Below, piece by piece: positions 26,530-40,750 of a stretch of DNA of 64,000 bases. Below the pieces are notes generated by a model. It saw nothing but the letters and a program-made list of their open reading frames with translations, had not been told where the DNA came from and did not search any database. Each line of letters opens with the position of its first letter. The first letter of the stretch is position 1. The stretch is from Escherichia coli (GTDB lineage Bacteria; Pseudomonadota; Gammaproteobacteria; Enterobacterales; Enterobacteriaceae). The position numbers and the translations under genes were made by a program. The stretch lies in the NCBI RefSeq assembly GCF_013315695.1, contig NZ_CP054353.1, one strand, 5' to 3'.

Positions 26530-28806
26530 TTAATGCGCTGCTTCCGCCTTGTGCTTTTGTGCACTCTGGAATCCGTAAGTCAGCTCATTTTTCTCTTTAT
26601 CCAGCGCAACCGTCACCTGACCGCCGTCCACCAGCGAACCAAACAACAGTTCGTTGGCGAGCGGTTTTTTCAGGTTGTCCTGGATGACACGCGCCATCGG
26701 ACGTGCGCCCATTGCCCGGTCGTAACCTTTCTCGGCCAGCCAGTTACGCGCTTCCTGGCTCACTTCCAGAGAAACACCTTTCTGATCCAGCTGAACCTGC
26801 AACTCGACGATGAATTTATCCACTACCTGATGGATCACGTCGGTGGAGAGATGATCGAACCAGATAATGTTGTCGAGACGGTTACGAAACTCCGGCGTAA
26901 AGATCTTCTTGATCTCTTCCATCGCATCGGTGCTGTTGTCCTGGTGGATAAGACCAATCGATTTACGCTCAGTTTCTCGTACCCCAGCGTTGGTGGTCAT
27001 CACCAATACCACGTTACGGAAGTCCGCTTTGCGTCCGTTGTTATCGGTCAGCGTACCGTTGTCCATCACCTGCAACAGAATATTGAACACGTCCGGATGC
27101 GCTTTCTCGATTTCGTCCAGCAGCAGTACCGCGTGCGGATGCTTGATTACCGCATCGGTCAGCAGCCCCCCCTGATCAAAACCAACGTATCCCGGAGGCG
27201 CACCAATCAGACGGCTGACGGTATGGCGTTCCATATACTCGGACATATCAAAGCGCAGAAGCTCAATGCCCAAAGCTTTCGAAAGCTGTACCGTCACCTC
27301 TGTTTTCCCGACCCCGGTAGGGCCGGCAAACAGGAACGAACCGACCGGTTTATGTTCGTGACCTAAACCTGCACGCGCCATCTTAATGGCTTCAGTCAGC
27401 GCCTCAATGGCTTTATCCTGACCGAAGACCAGCATTTTCAGGCGATCGCCGAGGTTTTTCAGGGTATCGCGGTCACTCTGAGAAACACTCTTCTCTGGAA
27501 TGCGTGCAATACGGGCCACCACGGACTCAATATCCGCCACATTAACGGTTTTCTTGCGTTTGCTGACCGGCATCAGACGCGCGCGAGCGCCCGCTTCGTC
27601 GATAACATCAATCGCTTTATCCGGCAGATGACGATCGTTAATGTATTTCACCGCCAACTCTACCGCCGCACGCACCGCTTTTGCGGTATAACGCACGTCG
27701 TGGTGCGCTTCATACTTCGGTTTCAGGCCATTGATGATTTGAACAGTTTCTTCGATCGACGGTTCAGTAATATCAATTTTCTGGAAGCGACGCGCCAGAG
27801 CACGGTCTTTCTCGAAAATGTTGCTGAACTCCTGATAGGTTGTCGAACCAATTACGCGAATTTTACCGCTGGAGAGCAGCGGTTTGATCAGGTTAGCCGC
27901 ATCGACCTGGCCACCAGACGCTGCACCCGCACCGATAATGGTGTGGATCTCATCAATAAACAGGATGCTGTTAGTGTCCTGCTCCAGCTGCTTGAGCAAC
28001 GCTTTAAAACGTTTTTCAAAGTCGCCGCGATATTTTGTGCCCGCTAACAGAGAACCGATATCGAGAGAGTAAATCGTACAGTCAGCCATCACTTCCGGCA
28101 CATCGCCCTGAACAATTCGCCAGGCAAGACCTTCCGCAATCGCGGTTTTACCGACACCAGACTCCCCCACCAGCAGCGGGTTGTTTTTACGGCGACGGCA
28201 GAGAACCTGAATAGCACGCTCCAGCTCCTTCTCACGACCAATCAGTGGGTCGATTCCGCCCACTCGCGCAAGCTGATTCAGGTTCGTCGTGAAATTCTCC
28301 ATACGTTCCTCCCCACCAGCTTGTTCTTCGCTGTTTGGCTGGCTGCCAGGATCAGAAGACTGTGTCGGCTCGTCTTTACGCGTGCCATGAGAGATAAAGT
28401 TCACCACATCGAGACGGCTGACTTCATGTTTACGCAACAGATATGCCGCCTGCGACTCCTGTTCGCTAAAGATAGCGACCAGAACGTTTGCACCGGTAAC
28501 CTCATTGCGACCGGAGGACTGGACATGGAAGACCGCACGTTGCAGTACACGCTGAAAACTCAGCGTCGGCTGTGTGTCGCGCTCCTCTTCACTGGCAGGC
28601 AGAACGGGTGTGGTTTGTTCAATAAAGGCTTCCAGTTCCTGACGGAGCGCAACCAAATCCACAGAACACGCTTCCAGCGCCTCCCGGGCAGATGGGTTAC
28701 TGAGCAGCGCCAGTAACAAGTGCTCGACGGTCATAAACTCATGACGGTGCTCGCGCGCTCTGGCGAAAGCCATATTTAAACTGAGTTCCAGTTCTTGATT
28801 GAGCAT
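26530..28806 (-). CDS. clpA: ATP-dependent Clp protease ATP-binding subunit ClpA
   Basis: 758 aa from ATG 28806 ([24 protein letters not shown]). Confidence 0.95.
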
Positions 28807-28836
28807 AGGCACCTCCCCCAATTTTTATGCCTGCAT

Positions 28837-29157
28837 TCAGGCTTTTTCTAGCGTACACAGCAATGGATGCTCATTCTCCCTCGCGTACTTGTTCACCATC
28901 GCCACTTTGGTTTCTGCAACCTCGGCGGTAAAGACTCCGCAAATGGCCTTCCCCTGGTAGTGAACAGCGAGCATCAATTGCGTTGCACGTTCTACATCAT
29001 AAGAAAAGAATTTTTGTAACACGTCAATAACAAACTCCATCGGAGTGTAATCATCATTGACTAATATCACTTTATACATAGATGGCGGTTTTAGCGCGTC
29101 GCGAACTTTTTCTTCCGCCAGTTGATCAAAGTCCAGCCAGTCGTTCGTTTTACCCAT
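28837..29157 (-). CDS. clpS: Clp protease adaptor ClpS
   Basis: 106 aa [42 protein letters not shown]. Confidence 0.95.
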
Positions 29158-29328
29158 TGTCAGTTATCATCTTCGGTTACGGTTATCGGCAGAACGCCCT
29201 GCCGCTGACAAGAGCTTATTTGCCTGACCAATCTACTCCACATGATAGATAACTATCATTTATAACATCTCATTGATTAGTCTTTATTTTTCATTGTGTT
29301 ACAAATAACAGCTCTGTCAAAAACAGCG

Positions 29329-29355
29329 AAATTAACTACACCATTAACTACACCG
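29329..29355. repeat. 27-bp direct repeat AAATTAACTACACCATT(A/G)ACTACACCG, left copy (right copy 40368-40394); candidate integrase binding or att sequence
   Basis: two copies, one mismatch, each followed by clustered CGAACAA motifs (29356-29395 and 40400-40510). Confidence 0.5.
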
Positions 29356-30293
29356 TTTCACGAACAATATCGAACAACCACGAACAAAGATCAACACGCT
29401 TTAACCGTTATCATTTTCCGGCTATCCGTTATGAAGCTGGTGGATGTTCCCCGATATGGGGATCCCCACCTACCGGAATTTTTGCCAGGTTAAATGTTAA
29501 CCTCTGCCCTGTTAACATTTTTACCAAAAAGGTAGTTAACATTTTTTGCACGCAACCAGATGAATCATAAAGAAAAAATCAACAACAACGCTTCATCAGG
29601 CAGTTAACATGTTAACTACTACGAAACGGTAATTTTTTCTCTGCGTGAGAGGGGGCGCGGTGTCCAGCTTATTCGTTGTTCGTGGCTAACCACTCCCCCC
29701 CCATGCCGGATTTTTTTTCCGGTTAACTGTTAATCAGGCTGGTGGGTTTTACATACCCTTGATCACCGTAATGATGATCCAGATCTGCACATTTCCACCA
29801 ATGGTGGAAAAGCCCACAGCAGGCCGCCCAGCCTCCACCAATGGGGTAAAAGCATCAACCGTAACGAAAGTCGTTATGGTTGCCACCGATACCCCAAATT
29901 TGGGTATCACGAGTAAGCCCCAAAATCTGGGTGTTACTCTTACCACCCAAACTACGGGTAGTTTCCGTAGTTTCATGGTCGAGTTGCAGATCTGCAACTC
30001 CCCCATTAACCACAGGCGAATTTCCGCCTTCGGTCATTCCTTAATCATCTGCGTAATCATAATGATTATTCAGCAAGCGCAATTTTGCGCTTTGCTTAAA
30101 GTTCAGCGAGTTACCGCGCCGACTTCCTCAAATTGAGGTTTCCGAAAATATCAGCGGGTTAGCGATTAAGCTGATCATTAATTAAACTGCGAAAATTTCG
30201 TAGTTTGTGACTGTCTTTCAGGCAGCTTGTTAACAGTCCTCAGAAGCGAGGGATGTAGCCACCCATTTTTGGTCCGTCGGGAATATCAACCAG

Positions 30294-30575
30294 TTACCGC
30301 CGCAACCGCTCCGGCTTCTTCCAGTGGTACGTTATTTTCTCCTTCTCCCGATACATCTCCACGCGGCGACGGTAGGCCAGCAACTCAAGAACTCTGGTTC
30401 GTATGTTGCGCATATCCACGCCATTAAGTTCTATACCATCACGGCGCATCACCTCCGCAACAACACGCGCATAATTTTCAGCGGTCACGCTGTCCGGCTG
30501 CGTGGCCTGTTCGTCAACCTGCTGGCTGATTCCGGCAACGCGGCGGATTAATCCCAGTATTTCGGCTTCTGTCAT
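30294..30575 (-). CDS. hypothetical protein (93 aa) next to the left cos site
   Basis: ATG with G-rich SD; no family recognised. Confidence 0.45.
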   Translation of the reverse strand: MTEAEILGLIRRVAGISQQVDEQATQPDSVTAENYARVVAEVMRRDGIELNGVDMRNIRTRVLELLAYRRRVEMYREKEKITYHWKKPERLRR

Positions 30576-30610
30576 TGTGCCCCCATCGTTCTGATAGTCT
30601 GGTGTCGTCG

Positions 30611-30840
30611 GGTCCTTCCTGGAATTATGGCCCGTTACGGGGCGGCGACCTCGCGGTTTTTCGCTATTTATGAGATTTTTTGAGGGGGTGGTTGTTGTTT
30701 AATTGTTTGGTATATCTAATTGATAAGTAAGGTAAAAATAAAATAAATACAACAACCTTACGATGTATTTTGATGTCATTAATGTGAAAAAATTCAATGA
30801 TATCAAATGGTTTTGTAAAAACACATGGTTGTTGTATCGC
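30611..30840 (+). other. lambda-type cos site, copy 1 (cosQ-like, cosN GGGCGGCGACCT at 30640-30651, cosB-like region pointing rightward)
   Basis: GGGTCCTTCC..GTTACG-GGGCGGCGACCT-CGCGGTTTTTCGCTATTTATGAG closely matches remembered lambda cos; three GGTTGTTGT repeats (30690, 30749 inverted, 30828) as candidate TerS sites. Confidence 0.6.
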
Positions 30841-31008
30841 GTATTTGATGGCGTAACAGAAAGTGATTTTTAACTTTACCGCTCTGTAACTACGGATTAT
30901 TCCATGCTGGCACGGAGAACGGCTACGGCATGACGCCACCCAGCCTATACAGCACAGTAAAGCCGATAAATTGTTAATCACGCGCAGCAATGCGTGTGAT
31001 TTTTGCAC

Positions 31009-31206
31009 ACTTCCGGTTAACGGGTACGATGTCCGGTTTTAGTGTCTGTTTTTTGCGCATGTCCGGTTCATAGAAAGCATGTTTTTATATTTTTCATATG
31101 GTTAACTTGCAGAGAAACCGGACATGGATCCCGGAAAATTTTCATAAATAGTGAAAACGCGCGAGGTCGCCGCCCCGTAACGGGTCCATATGCCGGAAAG
31201 GACCCG
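31009..31206 (-). other. lambda-type cos site, copy 2, inverted (cosN on the minus strand at 31164-31175, cosB-like region pointing leftward)
   Basis: minus strand reads GGGTCCTTTCCGG..CCCGTTACG-GGGCGGCGACCT-CGCGCGTTTTCACTATTTATGAAAATTTTCCGG, near-identical to remembered lambda cosQ-cosN-R3; three ATGTCCGGTT repeats (31029, 31059, 31116 inverted). Confidence 0.65.
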
Positions 31207-31208
31207 TA

Positions 31209-31233
31209 AAAAAAAGCCGGATTTCTCCGGCCT
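31209..31233 (-). terminator. rho-independent terminator ending the island capsid operon
   Basis: minus strand GGCCGGAGAAATCCGGC followed by T8, directly after the 137-aa gene stop. Confidence 0.55.
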
Positions 31234-31237
31234 TGTC

Positions 31238-31651
31238 TCAGATGGTTTTCAGTATGCGATCGATGTCGCCGTCATCGCCCTGGTTTCTGCCATCGTACGC
31301 CATGCCAGCTGATACGGCTTGCGGGCTGTGCATGTCCATAAAGTTTTCAAAGGCTGCGGTAAGCTCTGGTGCAACCTTTGGGCGCTCCTGCTCTATGGTC
31401 ATGTTCAGGATTTCACGAGCATTATCGACGCTAATACATGGCACGTTTGCCATTGCACGTAACAGCGGCTGATAGTCGTTATGTTCATGAAGCGCCATAA
31501 TCGCATCAGCGCGCGGCTTGTCCTGTTCTTCCAGTTTGTTGAGTTGATATACGGCCTCGTAGGTTGATAAACCTCTGTCAGCCATTGCCCGCGCTTCTGC
31601 TTTAAATTTACTCGCCAGCGGTAGCGCCATGATGCTTTCATTCGTTGCCAT
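31238..31651 (-). CDS. hypothetical protein (137 aa), last gene of the capsid operon
   Basis: ATG with AGGGGAA SD; no family recognised; candidate packaging-redirection factor by position only. Confidence 0.5.
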   Translation of the reverse strand: MATNESIMALPLASKFKAEARAMADRGLSTYEAVYQLNKLEEQDKPRADAIMALHEHNDYQPLLRAMANVPCISVDNAREILNMTIEQERPKVAPELTAAFENFMDMHSPQAVSAGMAYDGRNQGDDGDIDRILKTI

Positions 31652-31663
31652 CGTTTCCCCTGC

Positions 31664-31999
31664 TTATCGCGCCAGCGGCTGAACGGATACGCCAGAACCC
31701 GCAAAGGCGGCGCATTTTTTCGCGTCAGTGTCGGCGCTCTCAGGCCAGTTTACGGCGGCGATATTAAATATCCCCGTCTTGTAACACTGTGCTGATTTCT
31801 GCTTTGACGTGTCCACGGGGTACGAAGTCAGATAAACAGCCTTGCCAGATTCCTGACCATCCCACGGCTTAAACTCGCCATTGTCCGCCAGCATCAGCGG
31901 GGTAAATTCCTGAATAACGCCAGCATCAGCGGCAAAATGTACCAGCGTCGTGGATACCTGCTGACTGCCTGCAAATAACTCAATGTATGGAGTGTCCAT
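31664..31999 (-). CDS. head decoration protein, lambda gpD-like
   Basis: 111 aa; shares TPLMLD, WDG, YK(S/T)G.F, WPE, AFAG motifs with remembered lambda gpD (110 aa). Confidence 0.65.
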   Translation of the reverse strand: MDTPYIELFAGSQQVSTTLVHFAADAGVIQEFTPLMLADNGEFKPWDGQESGKAVYLTSYPVDTSKQKSAQCYKTGIFNIAAVNWPESADTDAKKCAAFAGSGVSVQPLAR

Positions 32000-32011
32000 A
32001 GAATCCCCCCG

Positions 32012-33067
32012 TTAACCAATTTTGACGGTAACAAATTTGCGAATATCTGCCGGAACCGGCTGCGGTGCGCTGTGCGTCTGCACGTACTCAATCGCCGGAT
32101 CGCCGTCCTCAATCCAGTTTTTCGGGTAAAACATGTTTTGCGTTGCGCCCGTTCTTACCGCTTCCTGTTCCAGGATCGCACCATAGGCCACCAGCCCTTT
32201 ATTGTTGGTGTTGCCCAGGACCAGCAAATCAGGCTCAAGGAAATATTTTTCTGTGCCGTCGCTGTCAGTGTATTTGCCGGAATAGACGATAAGGGCCAGA
32301 TCACCAAGATAGCCTTTAAAGCTCACCACTTCGCCCAGGTTTTTACATGCCAGCTCTGCGGCGGATTCTGAACCACGGGAGAGATCGTACAGTTCACGGA
32401 ATTTTTTAAAGCTGCGTAACATGCGCCATACATCAACGCCCATAATCATGACGTTTGCGGGGCAACCTGCCTGATCTGCGTATAGCTCAATGTCATAGAT
32501 TGGGTCGTGTATGTCTTTGTCCTGCTCTGACCATTTTTTACCGTCGGCCTGCTCTATGATGTTTTTTTCCGGTATCTTCCAGTCGATTTCATAGCGCTCT
32601 ATGCCTTCGCCCTCAATGATGTTTTTTCCGGTCGTTACCGCATTTACCGCCAGCCATTCCACGCGCGCTTTAATGGCGTTTATCTGGCGGCGCATGTTGC
32701 CAGTAATCAGGCGCATACGGCGGTAGGTAGGGTCGTTAAGCTGTGCTGGATCTTCTCCAGCCATGCGCATTATTGTTTTTAATGGATCGATTTCGTGTTT
32801 TGGCTTCATGTAGCCAGGGCGAATAATGCTTGTTTCGTACCCTTTATCGCGCTGAACCTGGCTACCCACCATAGGCGAACAAAACGCCGACATAGTGACT
32901 TCTTCAATATCCAGGTTATCTAACATGATGTCCTGTGTGTTGAATGTCGCCACGTTCGGGAAAAACAGCGCGGTAAACAGCGGACTGAATTTAAATTCCG
33001 CAATATCCTCGCGATTCAGGTACGCAAAAAGCTGGTTAGTGTTAAGTGCTATTGCTTTTACTGTCAT
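32012..33067 (-). CDS. major capsid protein, lambda gpE family
   Basis: 351 aa; collinear similarity to remembered lambda gpE (FKF.PLF..LFF, PGY(V/M)KPKHE, DP.YRR.R, YPKNW..GDPA, SAP); start overlaps the upstream stop (TAATG). Confidence 0.85.
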   Translation of the reverse strand: MTVKAIALNTNQLFAYLNREDIAEFKFSPLFTALFFPNVATFNTQDIMLDNLDIEEVTMSAFCSPMVGSQVQRDKGYETSIIRPGYMKPKHEIDPLKTIMRMAGEDPAQLNDPTYRRMRLITGNMRRQINAIKARVEWLAVNAVTTGKNIIEGEGIERYEIDWKIPEKNIIEQADGKKWSEQDKDIHDPIYDIELYADQAGCPANVMIMGVDVWRMLRSFKKFRELYDLSRGSESAAELACKNLGEVVSFKGYLGDLALIVYSGKYTDSDGTEKYFLEPDLLVLGNTNNKGLVAYGAILEQEAVRTGATQNMFYPKNWIEDGDPAIEYVQTHSAPQPVPADIRKFVTVKIG

Positions 33068-33273
33068 TATTCACCCCCGTGAACCTGATTCATACCCAGC
33101 GCCGCGCGTAAATAGGCGCGTACCTGCCAGCCTGTTGACGGCTCAACCATCGCCAGCGGATCAAGTCCTGCCGCAATGCCTGCTTTTACGTTCTGCTGGT
33201 GGCGTTCCTTGAGCGCCTTCACGATGTCGGGGCTTATGTACACCGAAACACCGCCTTTTTTCTCTTCAGCCAT
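33067..33273 (-). CDS. hypothetical protein (68 aa), first gene of the capsid operon
   Basis: ATG with AAGAGG SD; translationally coupled to the capsid gene. Confidence 0.5.
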   Translation of the reverse strand: MAEEKKGGVSVYISPDIVKALKERHQQNVKAGIAAGLDPLAMVEPSTGWQVRAYLRAALGMNQVHGGE

Positions 33274-33302
33274 AGTAAGAAATTCCTCTTTGACTTAAAA
33301 AA

Positions 33303-33357
33303 TCATAACTGGATGTTCATCCAGTTATGATTATAATCATGATTGCATTTTGTGCAA
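33303..33357 (-). promoter_or_regulatory. promoter of the island capsid operon with a 28-bp palindromic operator
   Basis: minus strand TTGCAC-N16-TATAAT immediately followed by perfect palindrome TCATAACTGGATGAACATCCAGTTATGA. Confidence 0.5.
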
Positions 33358-33527
33358 TGATATTGAGTTGCGTTGCAAATTATGAAATTATTATCCCGAT
33401 CATGTGTGTCAGTGCACCAAAAAACCTCATATGCAAAAGCCCGATAAGCCACCTCTGACCTTATCGGGCTTTTTTTGGGCGCAAAAAAGCCGGATTGCTC
33501 CGGCTGTGTGGTGTGGTTCTGGTATTC

Positions 33528-33776
33528 CTACTCTGCTAATTTGCTCAGCCCCATGTCTGCGTAAGTGCGATTTACTGCATTTCTCAGGTCTGCATAGTTC
33601 TCCGTTGGCGGCTCCGGTGGCCTCTGTGCCTTCCTGGAACATTCCAGCCGTCGCATCGTGATGTGATGCCGTTCCTTGTCTGTCTCCACCAGCATCATGA
33701 CTTCACCCCATCGCGCCGCCGCCCTCCGGTAAAATCCTTTCGCTTCGAGTTCTTCCGCTATGCGGTCATGTACCAT
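33528..33776 (-). CDS. small regulator, possibly PerC/Pch-family transcriptional activator
   Basis: 83 aa from ATG 33776 with GAGGGGG SD; LEAKGFYRRAAARWGEV resembles the PerC-family core as remembered; weak call. Confidence 0.35.
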   Translation of the reverse strand: MVHDRIAEELEAKGFYRRAAARWGEVMMLVETDKERHHITMRRLECSRKAQRPPEPPTENYADLRNAVNRTYADMGLSKLAE

Positions 33777-33786
33777 CGTCACCCCC

Positions 33787-34197
33787 TCAGAACGGAATAT
33801 CATCACCGTAAGGGTCATCGCCTCCCGCTGGTGGCTGATTACCCTGTGCGCCTGTGGTTTTGCGTCTGTTCCCGCCAGGACGTGCCGCACGGGCACTGAT
33901 TACGCTGTCTGCAATAACCTGATAACCCTGACGCGTCTCCCCGTTCTGTCCGGTCCACTGGCTTACCTGCATCGTGCCGGATACGCTGGCAACGTCGCCT
34001 TTTTGATGTTTAGCCAGGAAGTCGGCCTGCTTACCAAATGCGATGACCGATAGCCATAACGTCGCCTGTCCGTCCTGTGCCTGACTGCATGGCAGTGATA
34101 CCGCCATACGCGCCAGCGTCATCGGTGTGCCCTTGCTGGTCTGTTTTACCTGCGGGTCGTCCACCAGCCGACCGTAAGCCGCTATCTGTGCTGTCAT
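33787..34197 (-). CDS. single-stranded DNA-binding protein (SSB-like)
   Basis: 136 aa; OB-fold pattern (W..V.AFGK.A, KGD.V.V.G, W....G..R) and C-terminal acidic tail ...DDPYGDDIPF typical of SSB. Confidence 0.65.
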   Translation of the reverse strand: MTAQIAAYGRLVDDPQVKQTSKGTPMTLARMAVSLPCSQAQDGQATLWLSVIAFGKQADFLAKHQKGDVASVSGTMQVSQWTGQNGETRQGYQVIADSVISARAARPGGNRRKTTGAQGNQPPAGGDDPYGDDIPF

Positions 34198-34445
34198 GAT
34201 TCCACCTCTCCGGTTTTAACGTTGATGGTTGTTACCTGTTCCGCTTCGGCAATCTCCCGTTCTGTCAGCGTGGCAAAGTTTGCCGCCGCCGTGGTCATGA
34301 ATGCGCTTATCAGGTCGGGATGTTCCTTCGCGTATCCTTCCCGCGTGTGGCGGTCTATCGTTCTGATTGCCACCTTTAAGGTGTGCTCAGTCATGTCTAA
34401 CGCTTTATATTTTGGCTCTGTTCTGTCTCTGCGTGTTCTGGTCAT
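34194..34445 (-). CDS. hypothetical protein (83 aa)
   Basis: ATG 34445 with GAGGTGG SD; stop overlaps the SSB start (ATGA). Confidence 0.4.
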   Translation of the reverse strand: MTRTRRDRTEPKYKALDMTEHTLKVAIRTIDRHTREGYAKEHPDLISAFMTTAAANFATLTEREIAEAEQVTTINVKTGEVES

Positions 34446-34469
34446 TTGCCACCTCAATTTATATATATA

Positions 34470-34805
34470 GAAACATGTGCGGGTTATGCGGGTTATTGGG
34501 TTATCTTAGCGTGCTAACCATTTTTTATCCTTTTATATCAGTATTTTGCAAAACACCCTGTTTATTATTTGCCCACCACGTAACCCGCAAAACGCTCAAA
34601 ATAACCCGCAAACGGGGTTTTTTCTGCGGGTTACGCATGACTGTCCGGTGTTACTTCAGTTATTCGCCTGCGGGTTATAATCGTGCTTTTGCGGGTTATA
34701 AATGCCCTTTTGCGGGTTACGTGCGGGTTATTGGTTTCCTTTATATTCATGCACTTAATACACTTATACACAGGATAACCCGCATAACCCGCAATTTTTT
34801 TCCTC
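34470..34805. repeat. iteron array, candidate replication origin of the island
   Basis: at least 12 copies of GCGGGTTAT / ATAACCCGC in both orientations within ~330 bp of AT-rich DNA, directly downstream of the primase-replicase gene. Confidence 0.65.
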
Positions 34806-34815
34806 ACACAGGGGA

Positions 34816-36939
34816 TTAATCTTCATCATCAGGCTGGAACATCAGCACGTAAAAAACATGCTGCTTACCCCCAATCTTGCCCAGCGCCTTTTTTTTGTAT
34901 CGGCGATCGCTTCCCTTCTCCAGCATTCCGGCAGCATCCAGGGCACGCGCAAAATGCGCCGGATTAAATCCCTTCGCTATCTCACTCTCAAACACGTGCG
35001 GGAACGTGTAATAGCGCATCTCGTCATCTTCGTTGCGAATGCTCCCTTTTCTGTATCCGGCAAGCTCTTTAATCGGTAAATCACGCTCATCTGTATTGGG
35101 GTACGGAAGGTAGCGGCTAAACCCAAACGACGACAAAAACGCCTCAGCCTGTTCAACCATCTGTTTAAATTCCCTGTTACCCGTGCCGAACTCCTTCACC
35201 CAGGCATTAAAGTTATGCTGTATCGCGTCGCGGCATTCCTGCACGACCCAGCCAGTTACATGACCGGAAAGCACAAGCGCGGCCTCCAGTATGGCGAAAC
35301 GTTCACCCACGCGGTGGACCTGCTCGCCGTAGCTCTCCGGTATCAGGTTGCGCCACCGTTCGCGGCATTCCCTTACCGTATCCTTTGCCTCCTGCTGGTG
35401 GCCTGCCAGCCATTTAACCCACTCACGACCCGCCGCCCCGTGATTTGCTGTCCAGGCATCCTTTAACGCGTCAGCATGTTCCTTACCGTTGCTGTATTCG
35501 TGAAATTTCGTGGCTTTTTCCATCGGAACGTTAAGCAGTCGGACAAGCTGCCCCGCCTTAACTTTTATCCCCTCACTTTTGAGGAATGTCTCAACGTCCA
35601 TTTCTCCGGTGCTGATTGCCACCGTTCGCCAGTGTTTGATCTCCCTGTTGCCGCCATCCTTCGCCCCCTGCAATTTCCCTGAACCGTTAAACAGCGTATA
35701 AGCAGACGTTGACACTTCCCGCGCATTTCCGGCCTGGCCTATCTCATCCAGTGGTAAAAGCCCGTCATTATGGGCCTCGGCCTCATTGGCAATACCTAAC
35801 GCCGTGCCGTACCAGGTCAGCCGCTGCGCGTCCGGCTCTCCCCATAAACTTGATGCGATGTTCTGCGTGGTGGTCTTACCTGCCGATGACTGTTCGAAAA
35901 GATGCACCCCGAAGCCGTCAGCACCCACAAGGCCAATTAAAGGCGCTGCCAGTGACGTTGCCACACCCAGCATCATTGAGGCATTACCGCCAGCCAGCCG
36001 CGCCACACTCTCGCGCCAGCCCTCCGCCGTACCCGCCACGGAATAACCGTTAATCGCGGCGCTTTTTCCGGTAAACAGGATCGGTTTTTCAGAATCACCA
36101 ATGATCGAACCGTCCGGCATGATGTACGCGCCAAAATGCCAGCCCGTTGTTGTGCTTAACTGCCATTCCTCATGGCTTCCGCTTAACTGCATCCAGTCCG
36201 CCAGGATTGCCCTGTATTTGCCGTTGGTTGTCACGTTCAGCCCGTGATCTTTAAGTAACCGCCAGCCGTCACGGTCGCCGATACCACCACACGGGATCGC
36301 CATTGTGATGACTTCATGATTTGCTAATTTTTTCCAGCGCATGACGCGGTAATGCTCTTTACCGATCGTCCCCGTTCCCAGTAGTTCAAGCGGAGAACAT
36401 AACCACGTCTCAGGCCGGATAATTTCGCCTGACTGCTTATCCACTTTGGGCGTTACCCAGAAAACACCATCGGCGCGACTTTCAACGCGTGGCTTTAATT
36501 CGTCATCGCTATGGCTTCCGGTATCTTTTTTCTTTACCGGAAACTCAATAACCAGACCATCAGAAAGATTCTGCCGCTCACGGGCCAGATATTCGCGCCA
36601 GTTCTCCACCTCCTGACCGTGCATTCCATCAGGGTAAAAATTTGCATCCTGTACGCCTGCCGCCGCCAGCTTCTGACCAATCGCCTTGATCATTACTGGC
36701 TCAAGATGTCCGGCCCTGAATATGCGTACTGATTTTCGGCCTTCCGGCACAATTTGCAGCTTATCCAGTTCGGCAAGTTGTTGCTCTCCAAGCCAGACAG
36801 GAGGCACGTTATCGCCAGCCAGTCGCCCGTCCTGTTCCTGCCACTGTTTCGCATGTGCCCAGGCATCACTACCCGCAAAAATGATGACTTCCGTCATTTT
36901 GTCACGTGGCTGGTGTTTTAAATTTGGCGCTTTTTTCAT
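34816..36939 (-). CDS. primase/replicase (P4 alpha-like or PICI Pri-Rep-like)
   Basis: ~707 aa from ATG 36939; Walker A-like SSAGKTT; position next to the iteron ori; ATG overlaps the upstream stop. Confidence 0.75.
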   Translation of the reverse strand: MKKAPNLKHQPRDKMTEVIIFAGSDAWAHAKQWQEQDGRLAGDNVPPVWLGEQQLAELDKLQIVPEGRKSVRIFRAGHLEPVMIKAIGQKLAAAGVQDANFYPDGMHGQEVENWREYLARERQNLSDGLVIEFPVKKKDTGSHSDDELKPRVESRADGVFWVTPKVDKQSGEIIRPETWLCSPLELLGTGTIGKEHYRVMRWKKLANHEVITMAIPCGGIGDRDGWRLLKDHGLNVTTNGKYRAILADWMQLSGSHEEWQLSTTTGWHFGAYIMPDGSIIGDSEKPILFTGKSAAINGYSVAGTAEGWRESVARLAGGNASMMLGVATSLAAPLIGLVGADGFGVHLFEQSSAGKTTTQNIASSLWGEPDAQRLTWYGTALGIANEAEAHNDGLLPLDEIGQAGNAREVSTSAYTLFNGSGKLQGAKDGGNREIKHWRTVAISTGEMDVETFLKSEGIKVKAGQLVRLLNVPMEKATKFHEYSNGKEHADALKDAWTANHGAAGREWVKWLAGHQQEAKDTVRECRERWRNLIPESYGEQVHRVGERFAILEAALVLSGHVTGWVVQECRDAIQHNFNAWVKEFGTGNREFKQMVEQAEAFLSSFGFSRYLPYPNTDERDLPIKELAGYRKGSIRNEDDEMRYYTFPHVFESEIAKGFNPAHFARALDAAGMLEKGSDRRYKKKALGKIGGKQHVFYVLMFQPDDED

Positions 36940-37235
36940 TTCTGCTCTCTCCACGCGGCAATCATGTTTTTCAGTTCCTGTAGTTTTTTATCCACATCCA
37001 CACGTGACACATGGTTATTTCTGGAAGTCGGGATTTCCCGCCTGAATCTGCTAATAAAGATCTCCACGTTCAGCGAACTATGAAATGAATAGCCATCACG
37101 AATAAAATACACACGGTCAAACATCAGTTCTTTTACCGTTACTCTGTTGCCGTTCTTATCCAGATAAATAGCGCCGGGGATAATTTTGGGGTGTGCATAA
37201 CCGCTGGCAGTCAAGCCAGATAAATATGTTCTCAT
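36936..37235 (-). CDS. hypothetical protein (99 aa)
   Basis: ATG start; coupled to the primase. Confidence 0.45.
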   Translation of the reverse strand: MRTYLSGLTASGYAHPKIIPGAIYLDKNGNRVTVKELMFDRVYFIRDGYSFHSSLNVEIFISRFRREIPTSRNNHVSRVDVDKKLQELKNMIAAWREQK

Positions 37236-37241
37236 GATTAT

Positions 37242-37562
37242 TTATCCCCGATTTGAATCAGTATTCGCTTTCTTTATAGCATTTAATGCATTTGTGGCAT
37301 TTTCAATGGTGCACCGTAACGAAATATCAAACTGCCCAAGCATTGCCAGTAACAAACCGATATTACCCATATCAATGCGCATGGCCTTTTCGTCATATTC
37401 CTCATTTTCTGACGCATACCACATCAGGCTACCAATTGACGCAATACCCATTGATATATTGTCAGTAGCCCCATCCGCAGCGGAATAAACTTTTTTAGCA
37501 ATATCATGCTCACAGTTAAAATGCGGATTAATCAGGTACTGGTAATTGGTCATGTCAGGCAT
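37242..37562 (-). CDS. hypothetical protein (106 aa)
   Basis: ATG start; first gene of the leftward operon. Confidence 0.45.
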   Translation of the reverse strand: MPDMTNYQYLINPHFNCEHDIAKKVYSAADGATDNISMGIASIGSLMWYASENEEYDEKAMRIDMGNIGLLLAMLGQFDISLRCTIENATNALNAIKKANTDSNRG

Positions 37563-37839
37563 GGCACACCCCCTGACGAATACGGGCGGCGAATACCATC
37601 ACGCAGCCAGCCGGGGATTGCTGGCGTGCTTCCTGTTCGCTGCTGGCCTCAATGGTAATCACGCGCGGTTGTGCCGTGCTCAGGGCGATAAAACGCCAGA
37701 TGTATTTATTCAGGTTGTGCGAGTCCCGCCCTTGCGGGTGTGTGGTATGATTTAACATAGCTACCTCGATACTGTTGCTATCGTTGGTTGTTAGACGCCC
37801 TGCATGTGTTGCGAGCACTGCGGGGCGTTGCTCTTTCAG

Positions 37840-37885
37840 GTGTATTTCACCTTTGCTTTTTAATTTACTCACTGGTGAAATACAC
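37840..37885. promoter_or_regulatory. operator-like perfect 12-bp inverted repeat GTGTATTTCACC-N22-GGTGAAATACAC in a divergent promoter region
   Basis: lies between the divergent 106-aa gene and the small + strand gene. Confidence 0.45.
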
Positions 37886-37951
37886 TTCAAGCCTTTTTTT
37901 ATCATTTTTTTTGCGTATACTGACATACACCAATTTTTAGGAGATCCAGAA

Positions 37952-38131
37952 ATGGCAACTGGTGCAAAGAACGCAAAATCACAAATGACAACTGTCAGAA
38001 TCCCACATGAAGTAATGGATGATATTGAGCAACTTAAAGAACCTGGCGAAAGTACCGCTGGTTTTTTAGTTACTGCCGCAAAAGGCGAGATCAAACGCCG
38101 CCAGCGCCGCAAGGCCAAAGAATCAGAATAA
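37952..38131 (+). CDS. small DNA-binding protein, possibly ribbon-helix-helix (59 aa)
   Basis: ATG with AGGAGA SD; TTVRIPHEVMDDIEQL resembles an RHH beta-strand/helix; basic C-terminus. Confidence 0.4.
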   Translation: MATGAKNAKSQMTTVRIPHEVMDDIEQLKEPGESTAGFLVTAAKGEIKRRQRRKAKESE

Positions 38132-38188
38132 TCACTATCAGCGCCGTGGCGTGAGGTACTCCGGCGCATTGCTTTACAGGTCAGTACT

Positions 38189-38398
38189 ATGAGCAAAAAA
38201 CACCGATCAGCAGATGAGATTTTTGCAGAACAACGAAGATTGCTTTTGCAAAGTATCATTTCACGCCAGCAAGAGAAGGCGCGAGCTAAACAAATGCCAC
38301 CAAATACAGAACCAGCGCCTACAAGATTTGCGCTTGATGATTTTCTCGATAAACACCCCAGGGTAATGAAAGCAAACAAAAACCGCCCACCAGCCTGA
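38189..38398 (+). CDS. hypothetical protein (69 aa)
   Basis: ATG start; followed by a terminator at ~38441-38468. Confidence 0.35.
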   Translation: MSKKHRSADEIFAEQRRLLLQSIISRQQEKARAKQMPPNTEPAPTRFALDDFLDKHPRVMKANKNRPPA

Positions 38399-38440
38399 TA
38401 GCGGCTATCATCCCCGTGCTTATGTTTAGTGTTTCCAAAC

Positions 38441-38468
38441 TGGCGACCTCCCAAGGTCGCCTTTTTTT
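38441..38468 (+). terminator. rho-independent terminator after the rightward small-gene pair
   Basis: GGCGACCTCCCAAGGTCGCC followed by T8. Confidence 0.55.
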
Positions 38469-38488
38469 TATGTGCCATTGTCACCACC

Positions 38489-38698
38489 TCAAGCGGCCTT
38501 GCCTGAATTAATGCGTTCGCGGTTTTTGACCCACGCCACAACCTCAGACTTAACCCAGCCAACAGAACGACCGCCGAGACTGATACGGGAGGGGAAGCGG
38601 CCCTGCTTTTCCATCTCGTAACGAGTTGTGCGGCAAACGCCTGTTAGCTCTCTGCATTCTTTTTCGCGGATTACGCGATCTTCATTTATTTCACGCAT
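38489..38698 (-). CDS. alpA: AlpA-family transcriptional regulator / excisionase-like
   Basis: 69 aa from ATG 38698; helix-turn-helix pattern (CRELTGVCRTTRYEMEKQGRFP...GGRSVGWVKSEVVAWV) and position next to int. Confidence 0.65.
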   Translation of the reverse strand: MREINEDRVIREKECRELTGVCRTTRYEMEKQGRFPSRISLGGRSVGWVKSEVVAWVKNRERINSGKAA

Positions 38699-39107
38699 AC
38701 AAAAACCTACATAAAAATTACGTATATAAACTTTTCTCTTAGCTGTAGATATATGAGATCGGATATTACTTAGATTCTTTTTCACCTCTTAAATTAAAAA
38801 CACAACCATGCTAAAGGCTTTGTTCGCTAAGGTTCGTAGAAGCTCGTTAGTGTTTAAAATCGTGTCACGAGTTTTTAAGCGACGCAACAAAAAATGTCGT
38901 TATTTGGCATGACACCTGAATTACCTCATTAAAAACAAATAGATAAACCATCAGGTGTTGGAACAATCAAGAAACAGAGAATAAGAACTAAGAAGAAGAC
39001 ATTTCAAATTTTTTCAATACTTGACACATATAAATCGTCGATATTTGCCGATATTCGACGATTTATTTTAGAGGGCCATTTTTCGCAAGAAAAACAGCCG
39101 TAATTTG

Positions 39108-40346
39108 TCAAGAATTTTGGGAGTAAATTCGCGGGGTCATAACAACGATTTTTTCATCATTGTTCTGGAGAAGCTCGAGACGCTCAACCCATAGATTAAG
39201 AGCGTCACGTTTTGCATCGAGATAACGGGAGTGATTATAGACTCGTTGCATTCCTGGCAACTGGTGCGCGGTTAGCTGCTCCACTACATGAGGATCCACG
39301 CCTAAATCGTTCAGCATCGTTGTAAACGTGTGCCGGATGTCGTGCAACGTCCAGGGGGCTTGATTAATGCGTCTGTGTGCCGTTCTTCCGTACTCTGATA
39401 CAGATGATTGCCCTTTCAGTTCTCCGAGTAATAAGCCCGTGTGTCGGTTCTGCTCCACCAGCTTCGTTACGAACGGCAAGATCGCTTCCGGTATTGGCCT
39501 GAATATTGCTACCTTCGTTTTGCTGTGTTCTTTCGGCACAGTCCAGAGCATTTCTTTAAAATCCCATTCCTGGACCTCAGAGCGTCTTAGCTCAGTGGTA
39601 CGGCATCCGAAGACAATCAGGAGGCGAATCAGGGCGCTGTAGTACGGTGTGTAAATTTTTTCATCCAGGGCGCGTAGTAATTCCCCAAGCTCCTTGTTTG
39701 TTAGTACGCGCTCGCTTATTTCTGCTTTTTTCCCAACATCACCTACAACCATATCATCTAGAACGTTGGTAATTGCGTAGCGTCGTTTGCGGCAGTACTT
39801 AAGCGCCTGCTTGCATACCTGTAACAAAAATCCTGCTGATACCGGATTACGCATAGCAAGCTGATCAAAACAGGTCAGCCAGTGGCGTAGCTCGCATTTT
39901 TCCAGCGGCATAGCACCAATATGGCTGATTATGTGTGTATTGATCCGGCTTTTCAGAGATTCGTAATCTGTGCGCTTTTCCTTCGCGTACGATTCAAGCC
40001 AGTAAGTGAGCGCTTCCTTAACCGTAACAGGTGATAACGCTTCCTGTACGGTGTGATTAAGCTCATGGCGTGGATTTTTACCCTCAGCAAGCCAGGCGCG
40101 ACACTGCGACGCTTTTTCCCTGGCTGCTTTCAGGCTCAAATCTGGATAATTTCCCAGCCTCAGACGTTCAGGGGCTACCTTCCTGCCTGTTCCGGCCCTG
40201 TAAGTGAAATACCAGGTTAACAGGCCATTGGTTGAATGCCTTACGCTAAGGTTGCCACCATCATTAAAAAAGGTGTTTTTTGTGGTTGGTGATCCGCTTA
40301 ATTTTCGTAAAAGAGTGTCGCTAAGTCTATGAATTGCCCTGCTCAT
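39108..40346 (-). CDS. tyrosine site-specific integrase (P4-type)
   Basis: 412 aa; C-terminal catalytic motifs (R..TELRRSE, HDIRHTF, Y near the C-terminus); at the island edge. Confidence 0.9.
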   Translation of the reverse strand: MSRAIHRLSDTLLRKLSGSPTTKNTFFNDGGNLSVRHSTNGLLTWYFTYRAGTGRKVAPERLRLGNYPDLSLKAAREKASQCRAWLAEGKNPRHELNHTVQEALSPVTVKEALTYWLESYAKEKRTDYESLKSRINTHIISHIGAMPLEKCELRHWLTCFDQLAMRNPVSAGFLLQVCKQALKYCRKRRYAITNVLDDMVVGDVGKKAEISERVLTNKELGELLRALDEKIYTPYYSALIRLLIVFGCRTTELRRSEVQEWDFKEMLWTVPKEHSKTKVAIFRPIPEAILPFVTKLVEQNRHTGLLLGELKGQSSVSEYGRTAHRRINQAPWTLHDIRHTFTTMLNDLGVDPHVVEQLTAHQLPGMQRVYNHSRYLDAKRDALNLWVERLELLQNNDEKIVVMTPRIYSQNS

Positions 40347-40750
40347 GTTTCGAATTTCCGGTCATCAAAATTAACTACACCATTGACTACACCGAGCATC
40401 GTACAAGGGCGAACTGTGACGAACAAGGGCGAACAAGAAAAACGAAATTATCCTTTATAATCATAGAAATAAATGAGATACCTACACCATGACGAACACC
40501 CACGAACACTAACTGATAAATAACTATCATCTATCGTTGGCATCAGCGACATCTGTCACATTCCTGTCAATAGCGTTAACTGCTTCAAATTTTTGATTCA
40601 TACCTGCCCCCTGGCCCCTGTCAAATGCTTGACGGCTCGCCCTAATTCTCTAAATTGTATTTCTAGAGTTGGCGAGGTTTTGAACAGCCCCCTCTCTGAC
40701 CCCGGTTTATTCCATCTTACTTGTATAAGATTTGCGAAGGATGTCGAAGC

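Follow-up and report, generated by a model that had tools for sequence, protein, structure and literature searches.

Nested direct repeats at the ends of an Escherichia coli phage-inducible chromosomal island probably form a P4-type attachment site with separate integrase and AlpA sites

The nested direct repeats that bound the clpS-cspD insertion in the 64,000-nucleotide stretch of Escherichia coli DNA analysed here (the window) are very probably the attL and attR ends of a phage-inducible chromosomal island (PICI) with a heterobivalent tyrosine integrase (Int) and an attP of the P4 type, in which tandem 12-mers would serve as arm sites of Int and phased 7-mers as sites of AlpA. A sequence-only reading of the window had taken the outer repeat as the att core duplication and the inner repeat as a pair of arm-type integrase sites, and both assignments were borne out. 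The outer 17-mer is the duplicated core, as supported by empty chromosomal sites, nine occupied sites, a contig with the attP junction and a published core; for the inner repeat, the geometry of P4, the covariation with the Int N-terminus and the Pfam domain Arm-DNA-bind_3 point to the proposed role by analogy. The layout is an ordinary P4-phage-like attP, of the textbook P4-lambda type, in a known type of island. What we infer beyond this concerns three points: the make-up of the core base by base, the division of the two repeat classes between two proteins, and the recognition of some published "att cores" as arm repeats. The coordinates of the features are collected in Table 1.

Table 1. 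Positions of the island, its attachment-site elements and the flanking genes in the window.
Feature	Position	Strand	Description
clpA	26530-28821	minus	left flank of insert
clpS	28837-29157	minus	left flank of insert
attL core (B-O-P')	29243-29259		TGATAGAT 29243-29250, overlap AACTATC 29251-29257, AT
PICI body	29260-40513	minus	11,254 bp, between clpS and cspD
P' pair, putative arm-type sites	29331-29354	+	ATTAACTACACC twice; centred +89 from overlap centre; invariant in 9 loci
P' array, three 10-bp-phased CGAACAA 7-mers	29361-29387	+	putative AlpA sites; invariant in 9 loci; tracks AlpA class
alpA, 69 aa	38489-38698	minus	AlpA/Vis-family winged-HTH; PF05930, E 7e-16; putative excisionase and activator
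Phased pair CGAACC-N4-CGAACAA	38820-38836	minus	~125-140 bp upstream of alpA start; putative AlpA auto-activation site
int, 412-aa heterobivalent tyrosine integrase	39108-40346	minus	Pfam Arm-DNA-bind_3 (residues 8-95) and Phage_integrase (residues 214-375); PHROG 1
P pair, putative arm-type sites	40370-40393	+	ATTAACTACACC and ATTGACTACACC; centred -143 from overlap centre; 24 bp from int ATG
P-distal array, four 7-mers	40400-40436	+	CGTACAA, CGAACTG, CGAACAA, CGAACAA; second copy varies between loci; putative AlpA sites
P-proximal pair CGAACAC-N3-CGAACAC	40493-40509	+	ends 4 bp before core half-site; invariant in 9 loci
attR core (P-O-B')	40514-40530		TGATAAAT 40514-40521, overlap AACTATC 40522-40528, AT
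yljB small ORF, 24 codons	40527-40601	minus	RefSeq annotation of homologous loci mapped onto window

The segment between the two cores is an E. coli PICI of a known kind at a published integration site. Its length fits the PICI size of ~10-15 kb, and int, alpA and a pri-rep gene are all present. In full, the insert carries int, alpA, an icd-like gene, a DUF4222 gene, a DUF927 pri-rep gene, iterons, ssb, a major-capsid-like gene, a head-decoration gene and two lambda-type cos-like sequences; it has no phage lysis or tail genes, the content being otherwise limited to int, alpA, the DUF927 primase, ssb and genes of the capsid-remodelling type. The gene order is the one described for E. coli PICIs by Fillol-Salom et al. 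2018 (PMC6092414), and the clpS-cspD site is listed there as the PICI attC (Table S1). All the occupied clpS-cspD sites that were inspected hold PICI-type islands, and no Int more than 47% identical to that of the window was found among 50,697 phage genomes (best 47%); this agrees with a dedicated att site that prophages do not use, as is typical of PICIs. The cos-like sequences, which carry the lambda cohesive-end GGGCGGCGACCT, lie at 30609-30680 and 31135-31206 and form a 72-nt inverted repeat with 83% complementarity, that is, two cos-like sites in opposite orientation. They would be indirect evidence that a helper phage can induce, package and transfer the island. A small-terminase-like gene, present in the islands L005, L002 and L214, is absent from the window island. 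To the right of the insert, the order of genes is yljB, cspD and macB.

Two further features of the island were observed. Direct and inverted TGCGGGTTAT iterons surround an AT-rich centre at 34470-34800, just downstream of the DUF927 pri-rep gene (34816-36954), and this region is probably the replication origin of the island. A block of ~45 bp, CCGTTATCATTTTCCGGCTATCCGTTATGAAGCTGGTGGATG (~29395-29445), recurs in conserved form at the end away from int in all the E. coli PICIs that were inspected, even in those with unrelated integrases, namely L010, L007, L217 and, in part, L216.

The outer 17-mer reads TGATAGATAACTATCAT at the left end, with G at position 6, and TGATAAATAACTATCAT at the right end, with A at this position, and these are the only plus-strand matches in the 64 kb, against 0 expected. 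The right copy had been located exactly in the earlier reading, while the left copy had been placed one base off. Each copy is composed of a core-type half-site, TGATARAT, the 7-bp overlap AACTATC and two further bases, which belong to the other half-site. Strict identity gives a core of 11 bp, ATAACTATCAT; the G/A mismatch does not fall in the 7-bp overlap but in the core-type half-site. It was reported that islands EcCIIHE3034 and EcCI18098 have the core ATGATAGTTAT at cspD-clpS (PMC6092414 Table S1); this is the reverse complement of the block shared by the two copies in the window, and the coordinates of EcCIIHE3034 end at the same bases as the island ends in the window.

A comparison with island-free strains at clpS-cspD had been proposed as the way to define attB, and repeats that are native to the chromosome as the finding that would speak against an att duplication. 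An artificial attB, in which a single G copy joins the two flanks, was searched against 5426 complete E. coli genomes. It is matched at 100%, and the site is uninterrupted in 5057 of the 5426 genomes (5424 with a match) and interrupted in ~7%; a 77-bp version of the artificial empty site gave the same outcome. The empty sites carry the G copy of the 17-mer, which defines attB, and the inner repeats are absent from them. Thus, the inner repeats are island DNA, only the 17-mer with G is native, and native chromosomal repeats are ruled out as an explanation.

The distribution of the mismatch agrees with this assignment of the copies. G is found at attL and A at attR in 9/9 occupied loci examined, the int genes of which have diverged down to 89% DNA identity, as would result from strand exchange inside the overlap, to the right of the mismatch. 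The junction of the other partner is found in the metagenome contig L155 (IMGVR_UViG_3300019373_000108), which holds clpS, attL, the whole island and then the core leading into the left arm of the island again: its right end runs across TGATAAATAACTATCAT directly into the left arm, which is the attP junction with the A variant. This re-entry into the left arm indicates circular, concatemeric or tandem PICI copies in that sample.

Based on these junctions, attP was reconstructed as TGATAAAT-AACTATC-ATTTATAA and attB as TGATAGAT-AACTATC-ATCTATCG. Both are inverted repeats of the form 8-7-8 with 7/8 matches, and the related CFT073-type attP, TGATAAAA-TATGTCC-TTTTATCA, is a perfect one with 8/8 matches; the smrA-abgR site, where the left-hand match is by chance, is left out of this comparison. 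The symmetry suggests that two core-type half-sites flank the 7-bp overlap. The core also covers the stop codon of yljB (TCA at 40527-40529, TGA on the minus strand), which is preserved after insertion, so that the target is the 3' terminus of a small gene and is not purely intergenic. The earlier view that an intergenic target is unusual does not hold for this kind of element, as most published att sites of E. coli PICIs flank protein genes (PMC6092414 Table S1).

The inner 27-mers lie at 29329-29355 and 40368-40394, precisely as first read, and 22 bp do separate the right one from the ATG of int at 40346. Each consists of two tandem 12-mers, ATTRACTACACC, on its arm. The pattern ACTACACC-N4-ACTACACC occurs only at the two inner-repeat positions, against 0 expected, and a repeat search extends the pair to a direct repeat of 73 nt with 73% identity (29324-29396 and 40363-40435). 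Outside this locus, the ACTACACC tandem is also found at roxA-phoQ, smrA-abgR and tqsA, where the cores are different. The spacers between arm and core are AT-rich and contain a conserved TTTATAATCA; inspection of the att arms by eye found no match to the IHF consensus WATCAANNNNTTR.

The 12-mers covary with the N-terminal hairpin of Int. The 12-mer TTAACTACACC goes with the hairpin ..SVRHST.GLLTWYF.. (RHST..LL), GTGACTACACC with ..SVKYLTSGKLTWYF.. (KYLT..KL), a natural chimera included, and CTGACCACAC with ..EIKHSKGGKLTWYF.. (L010), and the distant integrases of L216 and L217 have unrelated tandems. The chimera is the Int of L184 (3312-4520 and the upstream arm), in which residues 1-45 are of the tqsA type and the rest is of the roxA-phoQ type. 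This island is integrated at roxA-phoQ yet has tqsA-type GTGACTACACC arms, which suggests that arm and core specificity may be exchangeable as modules. The rule for 12-mer and Int, together with the rule for 7-mer and AlpA described below, holds without exception in 34 further IMG/VR arms, which come from samples that are not independent, and both rest on few independent lineages, with 3-5 Int classes and 3 AlpA classes; most IMG/VR loci begin exactly at int and have no P arm, and those with upstream DNA were used. The covariation of the 12-mers could be mimicked by linkage, because both arms lie within ~200 bp of the 5' end of int in the circular form. From this covariation and the analogy with P4, the inner 12-mer pairs would be arm-type sites bound by the N-terminal domain of Int.

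The sequence-only reading had also remarked on clustered CGAACAA motifs and on inverted copies at ~29672-29690. The clustering is one of phase and not of number: the phased pattern CGAAC-N5-CGAAC is enriched in the window (6 found vs 0.17 expected), while the bare 7-mer is not (14 found vs 11.7 expected). All six phased pairs are in the island, two in the left arm, three in the right arm and one upstream of alpA, and the 7-mer arrays of the att arms all have the same orientation, a spacing of 10 bp and 2-4 copies each. The inverted copies did not fare as well. One exact copy is present on the minus strand (29676-29682), with a copy of one mismatch 7 bp away instead of 10; the segment is shared only by the window, L001 and L211, and six further islands that have the same Int lack it. 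As the segment varies among islands with the same Int, the inverted copies are no more than chance, and a functional site at 29676 is ruled out.

Across the nine cspD-clpS islands, the motif columns are invariant at 64/66 positions in the P arm and 45/45 in the P' arm, against 72/101 and 110/145 for the other arm columns (Fisher p ~1e-5 and 4e-5). Among the islands compared, the sequence of the 7-mer follows the class of AlpA: CGAACAA is found with class A (window, L002, L003, L010), GRAACAA with class B (L005, L007, L008, L009; AlpA 56% identical) and TCACCGG with class C (L216). The class B arrays contain some CGAACAA copies, so that the AlpA classes overlap in motif. A phased array also lies upstream of alpA in every AlpA class, with four copies just after the int stop in class B and a phased pair 25-35 bp before alpA in L216. 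A scan of viral contigs for CGAACAA-N3-CGAACAA gave mostly chance matches; a tblastn filter kept 7 loci with Int and/or AlpA matches, and five of these (L053, L054, L071, L084, L128) revealed that class B islands have the array in front of alpA. The yicC-dinD island L217 has the arm pairs and no obvious 7-mer arrays, and no relevant match to the motif strings was found in the searched literature. Two cases separate the partners: in L010, Int is the most divergent (62% identity at the N-terminus), yet CGAACAA and a class A AlpA are present, and L005 and L007 have the 12-mer of the window but GRAACAA 7-mers. The arrays thus track AlpA and not Int and are probably excisionase/activator sites rather than integrase sites; most likely, they are sites of AlpA, a protein like the excisionase/activator Vis of P4.

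AlpA, the gene of which lies 410 bp downstream of int, has features of recombination directionality factors (RDFs): it is a small PF05930 winged-HTH protein encoded beside int, and direct repeats one helix turn apart are present within att. It was reported that AlpA of EcCICFT073 activates its own promoter PalpA (PMC6092414). An improbable alternative is that AlpA is a transcription activator only. The 7-mers of the att arms would then serve Int or a host factor, or be copies inherited passively that play no part in directionality. In its favour, AlpA is called an activator and no excisionase is named for E. coli PICIs in PMC6092414, and an alpA paralogue fails to promote the excision of its own island (PMC11773190). 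However, overexpression of AlpA in EcCICFT073 resulted in Int-dependent excision and replication with Pint unchanged (PMC6092414), and the excisionase of CP4So is an AlpA homologue (PMC5148205). The AlpA of the window is 42% identical to P4 Vis/ORF88, and the P4 record annotates Vis as excisionase and transcriptional regulator. In addition, direct repeats phased at 10 bp, one helix turn, are the usual layout of RDF sites (PMC7498355), and the arrays, unlike the spacers, do not vary on either arm. In the reading that we prefer, AlpA would act at the 7-mers both as activator and as directionality factor.

A second alternative, which we rate a shade lower again, exchanges the roles: the phased CGAACAA 7-mers would be the arm-type sites of Int, and the tandem 12-mers would bind AlpA or another island protein. 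Arm-type sites of lambda are likewise short direct repeats on both arms, and the 7-mers are present on both arms and beside the core. The separated cases described above argue against the exchange, as the divergent Int of L010 goes with the same CGAACAA and class A AlpA, and L005 and L007 combine the 12-mer of the window with other 7-mers and an AlpA of only 56% identity. Moreover, 7-mer arrays are also found upstream of alpA, the promoter published as AlpA-activated, and the annotated arm repeats of P4 are tandem 12-mers in equivalent positions.

In the published list of PICI sites (PMC6092414), which gives cores only, several entries are arm sites. The "att core" of EcCIDI14, CGGTGTAGTTAATGGTGTAGTTAATT, and that of the yejM-luxR islands, TTTGTAGTTATACGTTTGTAGTTATACGG, consist of tandem arm repeats, and their true junctions need to be mapped again (compare L216 920-1140); the yejM island abuts the 3' end of a tRNA-Pro gene. 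Two elements, nested or in tandem and each with its own att duplication, would be expected to leave two concentric pairs of direct repeats, and the listing of the inner tandem as a core for EcCIDI14 fits such a history, but it is hardly credible here, since the 86-bp and 120-bp stretches between the inner and outer repeats stay joined across the core in the attP contig L155 and are absent from empty sites, which makes them island DNA, four other places in chromosomes have this inner repeat around different cores, and there is one integrase only.

The elements of the attachment site would work together as follows. Helper phage would induce alpA, and AlpA would then activate its own promoter. 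The N-terminal domain of Int would bind the tandem ATTRACTACACC pairs at -143 and +89, and AlpA would bind the 10-bp-phased arrays, which comprise four 7-mers at the P-distal position, two directly beside the core and three on P', as well as a pair in front of alpA. With the arms coated and bent by AlpA, Int could assemble the excisive complex, and strand exchange would take place within AACTATC, flanked by the core-type half-sites.

Int of the window has both domains of a heterobivalent integrase (PF13356, E 3.5e-16; PF00589, E 2.5e-18). Pattern scans of genome contigs with Int, based on the single protein and then on an alignment, gave no confirmed relative, the peptide patterns being too specific. 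The minus strand of the P arm was scanned for the int promoter, and no sigma-70 consensus promoter was found in it. Because 24 bp separate the P-arm 12-mers from the start codon of int, transcription of int has to begin within these sites or further out, and occupancy of the P arm by Int or AlpA could damp the expression of int that is transcribed through or from it. Autoregulation of int through the P arm, which was suggested earlier from the short distance, is geometrically plausible, and IntS of KplE1 and Int of P4 are precedents for negative autoregulation in such a geometry (PMC2951348).

As a separate observation, a promoter-like element, TTGACA-16-CACAAT, is present on the minus strand of the P' arm (29293-29320) and points outward across attL toward clpS, the ATG of which is 86 bp from the core. 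Its TTGAC and the A2/T6 positions of its -10 element are kept in all 9 islands, in contrast to the drifting bases around them. Transcription from it would cross the core and enter int in the circular form; possibly, it drives int in this form only, and its target in the integrated island is clpS.

A tentative wider reading, which we rate slightly less likely than not, is that AlpA links the sensing of the helper phage to excision, as the same class-specific phased arrays are found at its own promoter, on both arms and against the core. If this is true, AlpA classes would be excision-specificity groups that reassort independently of the arm and core specificity of the integrase, and L184 and L010 point in this direction. 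The covariation rule predicts which protein reads which repeat. The base-level map of half-sites, overlap, arm sites and probable RDF sites could be used by island finders, and the builders of PICI-based delivery vectors could choose a minimal int-attP cassette from it.

The att layout of the window has its closest parallel in satellite phage P4. The original description of P4 attP is reportedly that of Pierson and Kahn in 1987. In the P4 record (NC_001609), int reads away from the att site, as in the window island, and tandem pairs of a 12-bp "attP arm sequence repeat" are annotated at -134 and +75 from the core, compared with -143 and +89 in the window. The P pair is 16 bp from the int start in P4, and the corresponding 12-mer pair is 24 bp away in the window. 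Both systems have an Int with Arm-DNA-bind_3 and an RDF of the Vis/AlpA family (42% identical). The Int proteins have the same domain set and a distant relationship, being only 23% identical over 430 columns (E 9e-17) although the att layout is alike, and the repeat sequences are unrelated (ATGCCCCCAATT in P4, ATTAACTACACC in the window). In P4 the core is 20 bp long and lies in a tRNA-Leu gene, whereas in the window it consists of 11 identical bp at the stop codon of yljB. Integrases of the P4-like clade typically, though not by definition, target tRNA genes at the 3' end, and a different target is used at clpS-cspD. The three strongly phased 7-mer arrays of the window are far more regular than in P4.

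Among the published PICIs, EcCIIHE3034 (PMC6092414) has the same att site, 11-bp core and gene order as the window island. The CFT073-type islands (EcCICFT073 at ycfD(roxA)-phoQ) have the arm 12-mers in common with the window, and their Int is 77% identical. The window island has a DUF927 pri-rep gene and, unlike L005, is without the small-terminase-like gene. The searched text of PMC6092414 contains no description of the layout of arm and AlpA sites.

In KplE1 (intS/TorI) and P4, the int promoter region overlaps an att arm, and both Int and the RDF can down-regulate int (PMC2951348); in EcCICFT073, in contrast to KplE1, the activity of Pint is unchanged by AlpA. The RDFs Apl of 186, Cox of P2 and Vis of P4 are small DNA-binding proteins that recognize direct repeats one helix turn apart, as found in the window, and their sites are located at att and at a promoter (PMC7498355), as proposed here for AlpA. 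Apl and Cox repress promoters, whereas AlpA of EcCICFT073 activates its own. The arrays in the window occupy both arms and abut the core, which is not the usual layout of the lambda RDF, and the layout proposed for AlpA would be more extensive and more symmetric than those in lambda, P2 or KplE1.
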